The translations under genes and the position numbers were made by a program. A stretch of DNA of 21,453 nt, taken from IMG/VR virus record IMGVR_UViG_648276652_000012. One strand, written 5' to 3'. The stretch is from a virus (Duplodnaviria > Heunggongvirae > Uroviricota > Caudoviricetes). Each line of letters starts with the position of its first letter. The first letter of the stretch is position 1. Shown here piece after piece: positions 1 through 21,211 of the stretch. Below the pieces are notes generated by a model. The model made no database searches. It saw only the letters and a program-made list of their open reading frames with translations, and was not told the DNA's origin.

Positions 1-252
1 GGCGGTGCGGAGTCCGGAGAGTAACGGCATAGCAGAGAGCTTCGTGAAAACGATAAAGCGTGACTACATCAGTGTCATGCCCAAACCAGACGGGTTAACG
101 GCAGCAAAGAACCTTGCAGAGGCGTTCGAGCATTATAACGAATGGCATCCGCATAGTGCACTGGGTTATCGCTCGCCACGGGAATATCTACGGCAGCAAG
201 CCAGTAATGGGTTAAGTGATAACAGGTGTCTGGAAATATAGGGGCAAATCCA
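1..252 (+). mobile_element. IS2 right end (partial; element continues left of the window)
   Basis: Encoded protein ends ...[29 protein letters not shown], recalled as the C-terminus of IS2 OrfB. The terminus ...tggaaatataggggcaaatcca ending at 252 matches my memory of the IS2 inverted-repeat end. Not verified by alignment. Confidence 0.8.
2..241 (+). CDS. insD: IS2 transposase OrfB (InsD) C-terminal fragment, 5'-truncated by the window edge
   Basis: Open frame running to a stop at 239-241; DDE-transposase C-terminal sequence recognised from memory. Confidence 0.8.
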
Positions 253-280
253 GTTTGCTCTGCCATTTATTAAAACTCCT

Positions 281-311
281 GACAACAAAAAACCCACCGC
301 GAAGTGGGTTT
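281..311 (-). terminator. rho-independent terminator downstream of the GT tail chaperone gene
   Basis: Minus strand reads aaacccac-ttcgcg-gtgggttt followed by ttttgttgtc: a perfect 8-bp GC-containing stem (plus-strand core aacccac 291-297 / gtgggtt 304-310) and a T-run. Confidence 0.6.
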
Positions 312-431
312 CAGGCGACATAATAGTAGATATAGCGATTACGAGGCCACGCAATGCTTTTCTCCAGGAGCATCATCGATTTAATTAAAGACACCATCAC
401 ATCTCTGTAACAGAGTGTACGTAATTAACAA

Positions 432-1201
432 CTACACACACTGCTCCTGAAAATACTGGTCATCCAGTGCAAAGATCACTGCTTCAAATTCATCGCGCTC
501 AATCAATACCGGATGAGTGGCTAAATATTCATTTATCTCTGTCAGAGATAAAGGCAAAGGCACCCCAGCCATTCCAGCATAACGTCGGGCACGGGATATT
601 ACCGAATAGGCGTACAACAACTCCTTAAGCACCGGGTCTATTTCTGGTTCCGGTATCGGTGGCAACCTGAGTTTTTCTCGCTTCCATCTTGCCTTTTCCC
701 CCCTTTCTCCCCCGAACTCCGATAACCACCGCTGGGCAGCTATGGCTTTTTTATCGTATCCTGCTTCTGCTGCTCTTTACCCTGGGCGATGCTGGCTGCT
801 TCTGCAAGGATCTGCCAGTACAACTCTGGATTCTGCTTAAGCAGCGCGATCCCTCGTTCTGCCGTATATTCCAGTGCAACCTCAACACCATTAACCAGTT
901 CACCAACCCCTTTCCAGTCTTTCAGCAGATAACGAGCGGCATTATCAATGAGTAAATCATCAACAGAATCCACCTCGGAAACCTTTGAAATATCAAACTC
1001 CTTCGTTCCGACGTGCAAACTGGCATCCATTTTCTCAATGTGGCGACGGATTAATGCATTACGGGAGCGATACTGATCGTTATCGCTGCTTGCCACCAAC
1101 AGTTTTAACCCGTCTACAGGTTTTAAGTCCTTCATTGGCGTAAACCAGCGTTCTCCACCAATGATAATTTTCTGATTAAGAATAAACATCCATAACCTCA
1201 T
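432..1201 (-). CDS. tail assembly chaperone GT-like fusion product made by -1 frameshift at A_AAA_AAG (746-752)
   Basis: The G-like ORF ends 2 codons after an in-frame slippery heptamer A AAA AAG. The -1 frame is open from there to a stop at 432-434 (about 105 codons) and is the same frame as the listed 432..665 ORF. Position directly after the major tail gene fits the G/GT arrangement. Confidence 0.6.
740..1201 (-). CDS. tail assembly chaperone (G-like), zero-frame product
   Basis: 153-codon ORF immediately downstream of the major tail protein gene; ATG at 1201-1199; terminates just after the slippery site. Confidence 0.6.
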   Translation of the reverse strand: MRLWMFILNQKIIIGGERWFTPMKDLKPVDGLKLLVASSDNDQYRSRNALIRRHIEKMDASLHVGTKEFDISKVSEVDSVDDLLIDNAARYLLKDWKGVGELVNGVEVALEYTAERGIALLKQNPELYWQILAEAASIAQGKEQQKQDTIKKP

Positions 1202-1281
1202 TCAATGCGTCCCCCTGTAGGGCAGTACCACAGGAGGAATAACGGAAAATCAACTAATCGCCTCAGCACTGGCTTTTGCGA

Positions 1282-2211
1282 TCACGGCAGCCGGGGAATT
1301 TTTTTTCTGGTTATCGTAGGTGCTTCATCTGCTGCGGTAATGCTCAATTGAACCTGGATAATGTCGCTATTACCCCCATCAGGCCATTCACCTGACACCT
1401 GAACCTTCGGGAAACTGAAAGTGTATGCCCCCTCTCCATTCGAAAGCGTGAAGCTGAACGGAACTGTTTCTCCAGTCAGTGTTTTACTCCAGATTTCCCA
1501 CGCGGCTTTAGACCATGAAAGCGTCACCGTACCGGACGGTGTAAAAGTAGTCGGAATATTTGCTCCTGCATAAGGCGAGCCAGTCCCGATACAACGCTGT
1601 GTCTGGAGTTTGTTATCGAACTGAATATCAAAACTGTCGATACAAAAACCGTTACCTCCGGCAACACCATTCAGGCTTACTGCTGAAACCTCCTTAAACG
1701 AATAACGTAGCTTTCCTGCACTATCCACAGGTTCGCCTTTGATAAAATTCGTATCATCGGCCTTTGATTCCCAGTCCAGTCCGGCAAAGGTTACGGTCGC
1801 TGTAATATCGCCGTCGTTAGGGATCTGCATTTTCCATGAGCCAACCTGCGCTCCTCTGACGACAGAGGCAATTCCGACATCGGACGCATAGGTCGCCAGA
1901 GAAAATGTTATTCGCTCATTCCCCATTGTCAGAGAATCGCCTGACCATTCCGCGCCGAAACAGGATGCAAGAAAATCATCATGTTGACCCCAGCGAAATT
2001 TGGTACCAACATCACCGCCGACATCCACAGTGCCAGGCGTCGCCCCCTGAGCCATCCGGGAGCCACCAATCTCATTATTTTCGCCTTTATTCTGGGTGGG
2101 TTTTACTCCCCAGCTTGTGCGTTTTAATAAACTCCAGTCACCACTTGCTGGCGTAGTGCCTGCAACCGTCTCCCGGATAAATGCCGAGATAACCTTTGCA
2201 CCTGAACTCAC
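1282..2211 (-). CDS. major tail (tube) protein
   Basis: 309-aa ORF with GTG start preceded by AGGAGG (5-nt spacer). Sits between the tail-terminator-like gene and the G/GT pair; sequence is Gly/Thr/Ser-rich as expected for a beta-rich structural protein. Called by synteny. Confidence 0.6.
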   Translation of the reverse strand: MSSGAKVISAFIRETVAGTTPASGDWSLLKRTSWGVKPTQNKGENNEIGGSRMAQGATPGTVDVGGDVGTKFRWGQHDDFLASCFGAEWSGDSLTMGNERITFSLATYASDVGIASVVRGAQVGSWKMQIPNDGDITATVTFAGLDWESKADDTNFIKGEPVDSAGKLRYSFKEVSAVSLNGVAGGNGFCIDSFDIQFDNKLQTQRCIGTGSPYAGANIPTTFTPSGTVTLSWSKAAWEIWSKTLTGETVPFSFTLSNGEGAYTFSFPKVQVSGEWPDGGNSDIIQVQLSITAADEAPTITRKKIPRLP

Positions 2212-3391: not shown

Positions 3392-3786
3392 TATCCCCCC
3401 CTCACAACCCTGACTTGTGAGCGACTAAGTCCGTACGGTTTCAGCAGTGCTATCGCAAGCTGTAAATCGGGTTCAAGCAATGCAGTGCTGTTTGCTGGCA
3501 ACTCAGAAAATGATTTCGATACACTGACCCCGTCAGCCGACACGGCTTTACTGATAACAACGCCAGAATCATTTTTCTGCTGAAACAACTTACCGAATGA
3601 GGCAATTCTGGCTGCATATGCTCCCGCAAGTTTTACCTCTTCCGGAATACGGGATGGGTTAATTTTCAGGTTGAAGCCATTAAGCCAGGCATTAGCCATT
3701 AAAACAGCTTTATTTTTAGCGTTCTCACTCGTCCAGGCGTTCCCAAACGCATTATCAACGTCATCACAGGTCACGTAAGTGATCAT
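3391..3786 (-). CDS. head-tail connector/adaptor protein (by position)
   Basis: 131-aa ORF, first gene after the capsid gene and small ORF; ATG at 3786. Confidence 0.45.
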   Translation of the reverse strand: MITYVTCDDVDNAFGNAWTSENAKNKAVLMANAWLNGFNLKINPSRIPEEVKLAGAYAARIASFGKLFQQKNDSGVVISKAVSADGVSVSKSFSELPANSTALLEPDLQLAIALLKPYGLSRSQVRVVRGG

Positions 3787-5246: not shown

Positions 5247-5768
5247 TTAATCAACGATTGTGATACCGTCTTTCAATGCGTTTTGCTTACCTGCAACATC
5301 CAGTGCATCAAAAGCAGAGCGTTTCATCGTTTTCTGACCAATATCATGCTGTGTCGGACGGGAGCCGCCGCCATTGTTGCCACTGGCTTTCAGGATGTAG
5401 TCTTTCTGAGGGTAATTTTCGACAAGGAACTCCAGCGCCTCATCAAACTGCGCCAGTTCGCCAGGCTTCGCGCGGGAATAAATTTTGTTGCCGGAAGCGT
5501 CATAAGCAACGATCTTCCCTTCTTCCACTTTGAATGCCTGCCCGAAGCGGGCTTGTAATAAATCTGCCGGGATCGCAATTTTATCGGCAATATATTTTGA
5601 ACCCGCAAAACTACCGCCAATCATAGAATCGTAAAGCTGCGTCTCCAGCATCTGAGAGCGTTGCTTTTCTTCATCTAATTGCTGCTGAAAATTTTTCGTA
5701 ATTTCTGCCTTAACCTGGTCAACCTGTCCCGCATCGATCAGCTTTTTCTGGTCGATTTTTAACAGCAT
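5247..5768 (-). CDS. head scaffolding-like coiled-coil protein (possibly the 3' part of a frameshifted longer gene)
   Basis: 173-aa ORF rich in Lys/Glu/Gln/Ala, between the MuF-like and capsid genes. Its frame stays open about 50 codons upstream of the first ATG, back to a TAA at 5924-5922. Confidence 0.6.
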   Translation of the reverse strand: MLLKIDQKKLIDAGQVDQVKAEITKNFQQQLDEEKQRSQMLETQLYDSMIGGSFAGSKYIADKIAIPADLLQARFGQAFKVEEGKIVAYDASGNKIYSRAKPGELAQFDEALEFLVENYPQKDYILKASGNNGGGSRPTQHDIGQKTMKRSAFDALDVAGKQNALKDGITIVD

Positions 5769-6010
5769 TTCCAGTGCCTCGATCGCCTTCTTCGGGTCTT
5801 CGATAGCGGCAAACTTAGCCAGTTTTTCCTCTGCAGCTTCTTTAGCCAGGCGATGATTTTTTGCCTCGCCATTAAGCTCTGTAATTTTTTTATCGCCAGC
5901 GGTGCATCGAAGCCGATTTCTTTACCATCGTCGTGCACATAAACTGGCAGGCCAGCAGTATCAATTTCTGCGTATTGTTTTCCGTTAATCTCGACCGTTT
6001 TCAGTTTCAT
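5759..6010 (-). CDS. possible N-terminal segment of the scaffold gene, in a different frame
   Basis: ATG at 6010-6008 (MKLKTVEINGKQYAEIDTAGLPVYVHDDGKEIGFDAPLAIKK...). After an A7 run (plus-strand T-run 5885-5891) this frame gives an implausible tail (RRRRSRHWKCC), while the -1 frame continues into the 5247..5768 ORF. Confidence 0.35.
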   Translation of the reverse strand: MKLKTVEINGKQYAEIDTAGLPVYVHDDGKEIGFDAPLAIKKLQSLMARQKIIAWLKKLQRKNWLSLPLSKTRRRRSRHWKCC

Positions 6011-6070
6011 ATTAGTACCTGGTTTAAGTCTTCCGACAGTTACGCTGCTCACCATCCGGATCGCAGCAAT

Positions 6071-6100
6071 AAAAAAGGCCACCCGAAGGTAGCCTGTTGT
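6071..6100 (-). terminator. rho-independent terminator between the MuF-like gene and the scaffold gene
   Basis: Minus strand reads ggctacc-ttcg-ggtggcc followed by ttttttattg: 7-bp stem with one G-U pair, TTCG loop and T-run; lies in the 6083-6114 intergenic gap. Confidence 0.55.
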
Positions 6101-18119: not shown

Positions 18120-18292
18120 TTCCTCGCACGATGTCTTAGCCACCGGATATCCCACAGGTGAGCCGTGTAGTTGAAGGTTTTTACGTCAGATTCTTTTGGG
18201 ATTGGCTTGCGTTTATTTCTGGAGCGTTTCGTTGGAAGGTATTTGCAGTTTTCGCAGATGATGTCGGTGAAACTTCGTCGCTGTCGCCTCAT
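18116..18292 (-). CDS. ninE: NinE
   Basis: 58 aa, [58 protein letters not shown]; recognised from memory as lambda NinE-like. ATG overlaps the methylase stop (ATGA). Confidence 0.85.
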
Positions 18293-18816
18293 GCCGCCCT
18301 CCTGACGCCCTGCCCGATCGCTATCAATGCCGCTTTGGATACGGTAGTAAACATCCGTCGAGGACTGATGAACGGTCGCCAAATCAGCAGCATGGAGCCT
18401 TTGCTGTTTCCCTTCTTCTCCAGCCCCGTCGATGGTTCGATAAAATTAATCCGTCCATCAGTGATAATGCGAACTTCGTCGACACTCTCCAGAGCCTTGC
18501 TGAACCATCCGACTGACATATCCTCTGGCACAAGCATCACTACCGTCTGTCGCTGTTGTATGCACTGCTCAGCGGCTTTTTCCACCCACGGCCTGATATT
18601 GCTGTACGGTGGGTTATTCCAGATTGCACCGTGGCTTACCCACTCAGAATTGAGCGCGTCGTCGGCCTCAGTTAGCCAGTGAGCACACAGAGCATTTTTG
18701 TCGCTCGCTGCCGAATCCAGCCAGAATCCAAACTCAATATCCAGTGCATCAAAAAGCCAAAGCGGCGTTTGCCAGCAGTCCTTGTCGTGTGCTGGCGTAT
18801 TTGATTTGATAGTCAT
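18289..18816 (-). CDS. phage-type DNA N6-adenine methyltransferase (Dam-like)
   Basis: 175 aa with DKDCWQTP near the N-terminus and the NPPY catalytic motif; ATG at 18816 overlaps the ninB stop (ATGA). Occupies the slot where lambda has ninC/ninD. Confidence 0.8.
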
Positions 18817-19253
18817 GCAGCCCGATCTCCCCATCTCGCTTTCCACTCCAGAGCCAGTCTCGCTTCGTCTGACCACTTAACGCCACGCTCTGTACCGAAT
18901 GCCTGTATAAGCTCTAATAGCTCCGCAAATTCGCCTACACGCATCCTGCTGGTTGACTGGCCTATTACCACAAAGCCATTCCCGGCAAGGTTAGGAACAA
19001 CATCCTGCTGCTTTAATGCTGCGGTAAACACACACTTCCAGCTTTCTGCATCCAGCCAGCGACCATGCCATTCAACCTGACGAGAGACGTCACCTAAGCA
19101 GGCCCATAGCTTCCTGTTTTGGTCTAAGCTGCGGTTGCGTTCCTGAATGGTTACTACGATTGGTTTGGTTGGGTCTGGAAGGATTTGCTGTACTGCGTGA
19201 ATAGCGTTTTGCTGATGTGCTGGAGATCGAATTTCAAAGGTTAGTTTTTTCAT
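18813..19253 (-). CDS. ninB: NinB (Orf) recombination protein
   Basis: 146 aa, MKKLTFEIRSPAHQQNAIHAVQQILPDPTKPIVVTIQERNRSLDQNRKLWACLGDVSRQVEWHGRW...; recognised from memory as lambda NinB. Confidence 0.9.
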   Translation of the reverse strand: MKKLTFEIRSPAHQQNAIHAVQQILPDPTKPIVVTIQERNRSLDQNRKLWACLGDVSRQVEWHGRWLDAESWKCVFTAALKQQDVVPNLAGNGFVVIGQSTSRMRVGEFAELLELIQAFGTERGVKWSDEARLALEWKARWGDRAA

Positions 19254-20315: not shown

Positions 20316-21211
20316 AGATCCACCCCGTAAATCCAGTCTGTGTTTGTCAGGTCGAGTTTTGGTTTGCTGGCTGTCACGACTGCCTGTTGCTTGTTACGGT
20401 TGATTTCGAGCTGGGTCCACTTGTCGCGGAGTTTGGCCGGACTCAGCACGTTACCGGACCAGAAGTTGTCCTGGCAGGCCCAGCGGAACAGCACGCACAT
20501 GTCGCGGTGGTTACGTCCGTCACGTTCACGCATCAGGCGGATATCGTTAGCCCACCCTGCAAAATTCGGTTTTCTGGCTGATGGCGCGATGGTCTTCACC
20601 ATGTCAAACATCCACTCTGCGGCGGTCAGGTCTTCTGCTGTCCCCCACTTGCTGCCGCTCTGAATTGCAGCATCCGGTTTAACCACAGAAAGATCGTTTT
20701 CTGGCTGGTCAGAGGATTCGCCAGAATTCTCGGACGAATAATCTTTTCTTTTTTCTTTTGTAATAGTGTCTTTTGTGTCCCCCTGTTTTGAGGGATAGTA
20801 ATCCCCCAATTTGAGGGATGTTTTATCCCTCGTTTTAGGGGATTTTCCCTCGTTTTGAGGGATACACCATTCTGAGATGTTTTTATTTGGTCCAAACATG
20901 CCGCCTTGCTGCTTGATAATATTCATTCTGACGAGTTCTAACTTGGCTTCATTGCACCGTTTGACAGGTAACTTTGTAATCTCGCTAAGTTGAGAATCGG
21001 TGATTCTGTCCATTGGTTTATTCCACCCATAGGTTTTACGCAGAATGGCAAGCAGCACTTTAAACTGTCGCTTGGTCAGATCTGCGCCCGAATAAGCCTC
21101 AAGCAGCATATTTGATAGTCTGGCGTAACCATCATCGAGATCTGCCACATTACGCTCCTGTCCGGCAAAGTTACCTCTGCCGAAGTTGAGTATTTTTGCT
21201 GTATTTGTCAT
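20312..21211 (-). CDS. O: replication initiator protein O
   Basis: 299 aa, MTNTAKILNFGRGNFAGQERNVADLDDGYARLSNMLLEAYSGADLTKRQFKVLLAILRKTYGWNKP...; recognised from memory as lambda O; iteron repeats lie inside the coding sequence. Confidence 0.95.
   Translation of the reverse strand: MTNTAKILNFGRGNFAGQERNVADLDDGYARLSNMLLEAYSGADLTKRQFKVLLAILRKTYGWNKPMDRITDSQLSEITKLPVKRCNEAKLELVRMNIIKQQGGMFGPNKNISEWCIPQNEGKSPKTRDKTSLKLGDYYPSKQGDTKDTITKEKRKDYSSENSGESSDQPENDLSVVKPDAAIQSGSKWGTAEDLTAAEWMFDMVKTIAPSARKPNFAGWANDIRLMRERDGRNHRDMCVLFRWACQDNFWSGNVLSPAKLRDKWTQLEINRNKQQAVVTASKPKLDLTNTDWIYGVDL
20735..20864. other. lambda-type replication origin: four iterons plus adjacent AT-rich region, inside the O gene
   Basis: Four 18-19 bp iterons, each itself an inverted repeat (atccctc...gagggat), at about 20778-20796, 20801-20819, 20825-20843 and 20847-20864; A/T-rich tract at 20735-20777. 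Confidence 0.85.

Follow-up and report, generated by a model that had tools for sequence, protein, structure and literature searches.

A conserved −1 frameshift site of the phage G/GT type predicted in the ydaY gene of Rac-type prophages

Positions 254–2300 of the window, the whole stretch of 21,453 nucleotides that was analysed, are 98–100% identical to Salmonella phage SPF_0923 and to induced E. coli prophages (vB_EcoS-...R). Of 5,426 complete E. coli genomes, 1,073 (about a fifth) contain the segment 254–1300, and 766 do so at an identity of at least 99%; the locus is a Rac-like prophage. The features considered here lie on the minus strand and comprise a tail tube gene, a tail assembly chaperone gene (G), a further coding segment (T) and the beginning of a tape-measure gene (Table 1). 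Counterparts of the gene upstream of G are annotated as 'phage tail tube protein' or 'BIG2 domain-containing protein'. G itself bears the RefSeq label "ydaY: protein YdaY", attached to a model of 119 aa that starts at TTG 1099; this model is 5′-truncated and copied from the K-12 Rac remnant. Given the RefSeq name, the Rac-type prophage is therefore present here in its intact form. K-12 MG1655 retains window positions 432..1091 exactly, and with them a 5′-truncated G, the slippery heptamer and the complete T; this piece is flanked by ynaK and by ynaA, a tape-measure remnant, and its T ORF is unannotated. Downstream of T, the tape-measure CDS of SPF_0923 and E. coli LD22-1 starts at the base matching window position 266. 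An IS2 element (insD; positions 1–253, 100% identity) cuts this gene after 13 nt. Because IS2 interrupts the tape-measure gene, the slip site, although intact, is unlikely still to contribute to tail assembly in this host. The terminator-like hairpin in the gap ahead of the tape-measure gene is no part of the frameshift signal.

The G reading frame opens at ATG 1201 and closes after 153 codons at TAG 742..740, its 3′ end reading ...CAG GAT ACG ATA AAA AAG CCA TAG. Within this end, the heptamer A_AAA_AAG (752..746) lies in the phase X_XXY_YYZ with respect to G, spread over the codons ATA AAA AAG, and a single sense codon, CCA, separates it from the G stop. The first-pass annotation had described a 153-codon ORF that ends two codons after an in-frame A AAA AAG, and the G stop does occupy the second codon past the heptamer. 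After TAA 779..777 the −1 frame is open from 776 on, and it runs from the re-read G at 746 through 104 open codons to TAG 434..432, close to the figure of about 105 codons, ending at 432–434, that had been given earlier; its translation is AIAAQRWLSEFGGERGEKARWKREKLRLPPIPEPEIDPV...DDQYFQEQCV. The listed ORF 432..665, which had been said to coincide with the −1 frame and to lack an ATG of its own, is contained within the open stretch and starts with TTG. Reading from the opening at 776, this TTG 665, 27 codons past the heptamer, is the earliest ATG, GTG or TTG in the T frame, and the first ATG, at 572, follows 58 codons past the heptamer. At the 5′ end of G, the start common to homologues is the second Met, ATG 1189 (MFILNQ...), with GAGG 6 nt upstream. 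Because the homologues begin at this position, ATG 1189 is the likelier start, in which case G would measure 149 aa and the fusion GT 252 aa. A −1 slip at the heptamer is predicted to create the junction ...QDTIKK/AIAAQRW..., the slip falling between KK and AI.

Table 1. Features of the chaperone locus in window coordinates.
Feature	Coordinates	Strand	Basis or remark
Tail tube (major tail) gene, directly upstream of G	1282..2211	minus	annotation of identical or near-identical records
G, tail assembly chaperone, 'ydaY' of Rac-type prophages	740..1201	minus	phrog_313 match
Slippery heptamer A_AAA_AAG, followed by CC	746..752	minus	in the phase of G; invariant in relatives
T segment, 104 sense codons (AIAAQRWLSEF...QEQCV) plus TAG 434..432	432..746	minus	phrog_1189; C-terminal half of phrog_313
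Predicted GT fusion, 256 aa (from ATG 1201) or 252 aa (from ATG 1189)	432..1201	minus	phrog_313
Terminator-like hairpin, GAAACCCACTTCGCGGTGGGTTTT plus T run	289..312	minus	in the 165-nt gap from the T stop to the tape-measure start
Tape-measure gene, first 13 nt (ATG 266..264), downstream of T	254..266	minus	CDS starts in SPF_0923 and LD22-1

Among the PHROG profiles, G matches phrog_313, 'Tail assembly chaperone', with an E value of 4e-46, and the conceptual G–T fusion matches the same profile with an E value of 6.3e-51 over profile positions 13–246 of 258. The fusion spans phrog_313 nearly end to end, and this profile has therefore been built from proteins spanning both parts. T matches phrog_1189 (E 1.4e-36) in addition to the C-terminal half of phrog_313. 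Membership in a chaperone family is carried by the curated match to phrog_313, with no match above cut-off in Pfam or NCBIfam: a search of a local Pfam copy gave no match for G, T reached PF23812 (Phage_TAC_18) with an E value of 4.9e-4 and 20.6 bits, under the gathering cut-off of 27, and an NCBIfam search gave no match for either G or T. Homologues carry a precomputed assignment to PF27119, a family that this Pfam copy does not contain. An AlphaFold2 model of G, obtained with 30 homologues of 57–95% identity, is of low confidence (pLDDT 51.8, pTM 0.45), and a sequence profile search of the PDB with the GT alignment returned a chance match alone (E 0.74).

No record of a close relative that was examined annotates a frameshift between G and T. 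G appears in these records as "YdaY" or "hypothetical protein", and T as "hypothetical protein" with inconsistent starts, or it is left unannotated; where pieces of T are annotated, they measure 41 aa (LD22-1), 46 aa (vB_EcoS-473R12) or 61 aa (SPF_0923). Literature searches returned nothing linking ydaY to frameshifting or to tails, and no database protein is an annotated GT of the close family. Database proteins that do cover both G and T were considered and set aside as mutational or assembly products rather than annotated frameshift products: one (P0001) can be explained by the loss of 35 nt between two GCAGAAGCAG repeats, and three (P0002, P0003 and P0010) are partly translated in wrong frames. 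The small ORFs that GenBank and RefSeq place within T would fit a locus of two independent genes, in which T starts internally (at TTG 665, GTG 632, TTG 617 or ATG 572) and no fusion is made. An AAGGAG located 3 nt ahead of TTG 617 speaks for such a start; however, it lies too near this codon and is absent from the Klebsiella homologues. The annotated T starts, moreover, conflict among records, and PHROG family 313 spans the G and T parts alike. Further evidence on this point comes from the variation among relatives, as set out below.

Taken by itself, the word AAAAAAG is no rarity: the window contains it 12 times against an expectation of 6.4 ± 2.7, and 5 of 100 shuffles reach 12 occurrences. 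In-frame heptamers of the form X_XXY_YYZ number 27 in the 29 minus-strand ORFs, with a median −1 extension of 7 codons. Three other heptamers in the window also have a long −1 extension. At 3394–3400 the extension merely enters the next gene, with which there is an ATGA overlap; the heptamer at 5885–5891 marks a 1-nt lesion; and G_GGA_AAC at 18406–18412 is followed by 96 open −1 codons. A run of at least 104 open −1 codons is found at only 3.3% of all codon positions. Unlike the word AAAAAAG itself, the combination of features at the chaperone gene is unusual in the window, and the decisive evidence against chance is comparative.

A tblastn search with the fusion matched 27 phage records at a coverage of at least 80%, each in two pieces lying in neighbouring frames, at identities of about 65% in Klebsiella, 55% in Erwinia, 32% in Pseudomonas and 31% in Acinetobacter. 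A scan of IMG/VR yielded 80 related viral loci of 63–98% identity, and T lies in the −1 frame behind an in-phase A_AAA_AAG in 79 of them. Comparison with related G/GT pairs, which had been proposed earlier as a check, thus favours the frameshift both through these contigs and through the joined CDS annotated in Acinetobacter phage TRS1. In the sole exception (L012), where T is apparently in frame 0, the heptamer is unchanged and two 1-nt homopolymer deletions lie downstream; this locus was not retained as a true counterexample. The 0-frame stop follows the heptamer after 1 codon in 60 loci, 7 codons in 14, 25 codons in one and 35 codons in four. Since this distance varies across the 79 loci, the 0-frame stop is free to move and the heptamer is not. 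The same comparison bears on the idea that G and T arose from one ancestral gene through a 1-nt indel in the A run, whether by decay or as a sequencing artefact. The prophage copy in the window does carry IS2 in its tape-measure gene as well as two homopolymer differences that break or shorten other genes, homopolymer length varying elsewhere in the prophage (A8 versus A9 at 1299–1306, A7 versus A8 at 5885–5892). However, 79 of 80 independent contigs, isolated phages and the 766 E. coli genomes that carry the segment at an identity of at least 99% all share one A6 heptamer and −1 arrangement, and the −1 arrangement persists in other genera at 25–33% protein identity. An accidental split of this kind is extremely improbable.

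Substitutions were then tabulated by codon position in 39 distinct sequence contexts of related loci. Over the 45 nt that precede the heptamer, 13 of 15 third positions of the 0 frame are variable, as opposed to 3/15 and 4/15 at the first and second positions; in the 100 nt downstream, it is the third positions of the −1 frame that vary (30/33 versus 12/33 and 12/34). Between these two segments, all seven bases of the heptamer are invariant in the 39 contexts, including its first A, which is the 0-frame wobble base of an Ile or Val codon (ATA or GTA), whereas the codons around the heptamer vary synonymously across the 39 distinct sequences. The 27 codons that precede the earliest possible start of T are kept as protein, as exemplified by AIAAQRWLSEF, AIEAQKWLKEF, VIEAQEWLNEF and AIARFQWESEW in different relatives. 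The variation switches frame at the heptamer, and it shows selection reading the −1 frame from the heptamer on, 27 codons ahead of any possible start. Such a switch is predicted by a programmed shift and not by an independent start of T, which is contradicted by the start-less codons being conserved as protein with third-position variation in the −1 frame. Two independent genes are thus a very unlikely account of the locus.

In more distant relatives, the heptamer changes and its last codon stays. The site reads A_AAA_AAG at the same position in Klebsiella phages (about 65% protein identity), G_GGA_AAG in Acinetobacter phages, with TRS1 annotated as a joined CDS, G_GAA_AAG in Pseudomonas phages, identically so in all 15 distinct sequences listed, and GCA_AAG, directly followed by TAA, in Erwinia Gungnir39; when viral contigs were scanned with the Erwinia protein, no relatives turned up. 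The AAG lysine codon is retained in the same alignment column by relatives of 25–57% identity. In an alignment of seven fusions, this lysine (K152) is among only 15 invariant columns, and all inferred shift sites are located there. One AAG lysine codon thus appears to host every slip in the family while the preceding codon changes. The same relatives help to judge whether the frame might be changed during transcription instead, the polymerase inserting an extra A at the A6 run (751..746 region) and the resulting mRNA encoding ...IKKAIAAQ... in a single frame. Six consecutive A are present at the site, the product of such a polymerase slip would be identical to the GT made by a ribosomal slip, and homopolymer length is variable at the two other places in the prophage mentioned above (1299–1306 and 5885–5892). 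On the other hand, bacterial RNA polymerase is known to slip efficiently on runs of about 8–9 or more A or T, so a run of A6 is short for it, and relatives with runs of only 3–4 A keep both the arrangement and the AAG. The retention of AAG next to short A runs fits re-pairing of tRNA-Lys and not polymerase stuttering, and transcriptional slippage is a highly improbable source of the fusion. The ribosome is the agent that we infer for the slip.

The first-pass annotation had suggested a search for a stimulatory RNA structure downstream of the heptamer; none emerged from single folds of 103 and 56 nt or from an alignment fold of 12 relatives. The 103 nt from the heptamer fold with −25.7 kcal/mol against −24.9 ± 2.9 kcal/mol for shuffled sequences (z −0.30), and the 56-nt downstream fold is no better than shuffles (z +0.76). 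A single local hairpin is predicted, and it starts with the final base of the heptamer, so that no spacer of 5–8 nt separates the two. For the 12 diverse relatives, the consensus fold amounts to −5.2 kcal/mol, its covariation term is −0.13, and compensatory changes occur at only one of the 12 predicted pairs. The downstream hairpin or pseudoknot that characterizes stimulated cassettes of the dnaX and IS3/IS911 type is accordingly missing from these folds. Upstream, an AGGA (762..759) lies 6 nt from the heptamer in most enterobacterial relatives and is absent from the Pseudomonas clade; it falls in conserved Gln-Asp/Glu codons and hence is coding-constrained too. Because it lies within conserved codons and is missing from the Pseudomonas clade, this AGGA, the only Shine-Dalgarno-like element, is not claimed as a signal.

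The heptamer A_AAA_AAG is among the most shift-prone in E. coli (PMC4066793). In reporters, its shifting rate is 0.29% without stimulators (PMC4066793, Table S3); the best 3′ context raises it to as much as about 3.7%, the stimulators of IS911 to 4.3% and the IS3 pseudoknot to 39% (PMC4066793). The dinucleotide 3′ of the heptamer is CC here, and 3′ CC has been reported as the most shift-prone dinucleotide context (PMC5009743). Given that no stimulator was found, and with the published efficiencies of A_AAA_AAG and the 3′ CC in mind, GT is expected at a low level, from a few tenths of a per cent (about 0.3%) to a few per cent, which would be in line by analogy with the G:GT ratio of roughly 30:1 in lambda (PMC5009743).

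Of the features by which Xu, Hendrix & Duda (2004) recognize G/GT pairs, those that a sequence can reveal are present at the locus: the order is tube gene, G, T, tape measure; T, read in a different frame, overlaps the 3′ end of G and has no initiation signal of its own; an in-phase slippery sequence lies within the overlap; and both the arrangement and the slip site are kept despite sequence divergence. The G/GT frameshift architecture proposed from the first inspection is therefore upheld by position, protein family, frames, heptamer conservation and distant relatives alike. With a probability of roughly 0.9, the site would be a programmed −1 ribosomal frameshift of the phage G/GT type and, judged from sequence comparison, it is a conserved, canonical and so far unannotated example in the ydaY gene of Rac-type prophages. 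Ribosomes that initiate at ATG 1189 or 1201 would mostly stop at TAG 742..740 and release G (149 or 153 aa). A small fraction would slip one base back on A_AAA_AAG, the tRNA-Lys on AAA and AAG re-pairing with AAA AAA. The slipped ribosomes would then read GCC ATA GCT... and continue for 104 more codons to TAG 434..432, giving GT (252 or 256 aa). If lambda is a guide, the tape-measure protein may be coated by G and by the G part of GT, and the T part may recruit the tail tube protein.

The sites G_GAA_AAG of Pseudomonas and GCA_AAG of Erwinia are not canonical X_XXY_YYZ heptamers. If these sites really shift, re-pairing of a lone tRNA-Lys might suffice for a physiological level of GT, a suggestion that we regard as rather doubtful. 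Were it true, the chaperone family would form a natural series for gauging the contribution of the P-site codon to slippage. The slip site survives in the ydaY remnant of K-12, where it is directly assayable. "YdaY" would be the tail assembly chaperone of a prophage family found in 1,073 of 5,426 complete E. coli genomes, and a joined CDS entry would correct the records and give ydaY a function. The site is one more case of a well-established rule; the understanding of frameshifting is unchanged by it, and its value lies mainly in annotation.

Several known systems resemble the one described here. Lambda gpG/gpGT (Levin, Hendrix & Casjens 1993; Xu, Hendrix & Duda 2004, 2013, 2014; reviewed in PMC5009743) agrees with the Rac-type prophage in that the chaperone gene is flanked by the major tail gene and the tape-measure gene. 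In lambda, and as predicted here, a −1 slip towards the 3′ end of G appends a T domain encoded in the −1 frame, the A-site codon is the lysine codon AAG, and the products measure about 150 and about 250 aa. No stimulator was detected here, and the lambda shift, too, is reported to need no stimulator. The two differ in the heptamer, which is G_GGA_AAG in lambda and A_AAA_AAG here. A second chaperone gene, the lambda-like ECs1801 of prophage Sp9 of E. coli O157:H7 Sakai, has been placed by Sharma et al. (2014) in the cluster A_AAA_AAG_25 with the entry 'tail assembly chaperone; [true]' (PMC4066793, Table S4). Like ydaY, it resides in E. coli and carries A_AAA_AAG at the end of the chaperone ORF (AGA AAA AAG TAG), followed by a −1 extension of about 100 codons and by a terminator-like hairpin ahead of the tape-measure gene; the stop directly adjoins the heptamer, however, and the products have 124 and 226 aa. 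The ECs1801 cluster was considered as the same gene and rejected as an unrelated family (BLASTP E 1.0): similarity of G to lambda-type G is undetectable, hhalign of the G alignment against ECs1801 giving a probability of 0.15%.

The frameshifts of E. coli dnaX and of the IS3 family share with the phage site the heptamer A_AAA_AAG and the re-pairing of tRNA-Lys (PMC5009743). These sites employ a strong downstream hairpin or pseudoknot and sometimes an upstream Shine-Dalgarno sequence, and they reach tens of per cent; the phage site, unlike them, shows no structure beyond chance. The gene pair TRS1_18/TRS1_19 of Acinetobacter phage vB_AbaS_TRS1 (NC_031098) belongs to the same family as G and T, with about 25% identity over the full length and the same gene order. 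The slip in TRS1 is placed on an AAG in the same alignment column as in the Rac-type gene, with the differences that its heptamer is G_GGA_AAG and that the 0-frame stop comes 26 codons after the heptamer rather than one. TRS1 is annotated as a frameshift product by means of the joined CDS, whereas the Rac-type genes are not. The closest functional analogue of the ydaY site is lambda G/GT, and the closest relative annotated as a frameshift is that of TRS1.

The tail assembly chaperone gene G, listed in RefSeq as 'protein YdaY', is modelled there from a TTG at 1099 as a product of 119 amino acids (window 740-1099). This model is a K-12 deletion remnant that has been carried over onto intact prophages and therefore truncates the real gene of 149/153 amino acids. 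E. coli K-12 MG1655 keeps window 432..1091 exactly, including the slippery A_AAA_AAG heptamer and the entire -1-frame T ORF, which is without annotation in that genome. A natural in-frame fusion of G and T exists in E. coli (P0001, NB16F79_39920, 240 amino acids), reading ...LAEAGYDKKAIAAQ.... Judged from the protein, this fusion could have arisen by deletion of 35 nt between two GCAGAAGCAG copies just upstream of the heptamer, and its gene would yield only a GT-like protein.

Homopolymer runs and heptamers also occur elsewhere on the minus strand. The A run at the 3′ end of the tail tube gene comprises eight residues (A8) in the window versus nine (A9) in 19 of the 23 matching related loci. 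With A9, the tube gene extends to a TGA at 1252..1250, matching the 320-amino-acid RefSeq model, whereas with A8 it stops at 1282 and its five-residue tail differs. The shorter run may have arisen by mutation or be due to erroneous sequencing, or the run may be prone to slippage. On the minus strand at 5885-5892, the GAC AAAAAAAA of Salmonella phage SPF_0923 corresponds to GAT AAAAAAA in the window. Being one base short here, a 278-amino-acid head-module gene, labelled 'hypothetical' or 'coat protein' in other records, is cut into ORFs 5759..6082 and 5247..5768. The site in the window is an in-frame A_AAA_AAA followed by 212 open -1 codons, which makes it resemble a site of frameshifting, although it has the look of a lesion. 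Downstream of an in-frame G_GGA_AAC heptamer, the -1 frame stays open for 96 codons, the third-longest extension among those of the 27 in-frame X_XXY_YYZ heptamers found in 29 minus-strand ORFs of the window.

Minus-strand features in and around the tail genes and elsewhere in the window
Feature	Window position	Strand	Location
A run	1299-1306	minus	3′ end of tail tube gene (1282..2211)
In-frame G_GGA_AAC heptamer	18406-18412	minus	inside ORF 18289..18876
Terminator-like hairpin with T run	289-312	minus	inside 165-nt gap (267-431) from T to tape-measure gene

The tape-measure gene (minus strand, ATG 266..264) is broken 13 nt past its ATG by the end of an IS2 element (window 1-253; 100% identity to insD-bearing copies), so that this prophage copy probably cannot make tails. 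A hairpin similar to that preceding the tape-measure gene lies in the same gap of prophage Sp9 of O157 Sakai (about 20690-20718 of that locus). Since relatives from Klebsiella, Pseudomonas, and Acinetobacter carry 1-4 additional small ORFs there, the gap seems to be a hot spot of insertion or regulation within the tail operon.

At the lysine column homologous to the heptamer's AAG codon, a canonical X_XXY_YYZ heptamer is absent in the Erwinia and Pseudomonas relatives. Erwinia phage Gungnir39 (about 1984-1995) features GTC GCA AAG TAA at this column, and CTG GAA AAG is found in the Pseudomonas phages (15/15 distinct sequences listed; about 1885-1893 in L007, one of these phages), some of which have a -1-frame stop just 4 codons upstream of the site. 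By their sequence, the Erwinia GCA AAG TAA and the Pseudomonas GAA AAG are candidate non-canonical A_AAG shift sites.
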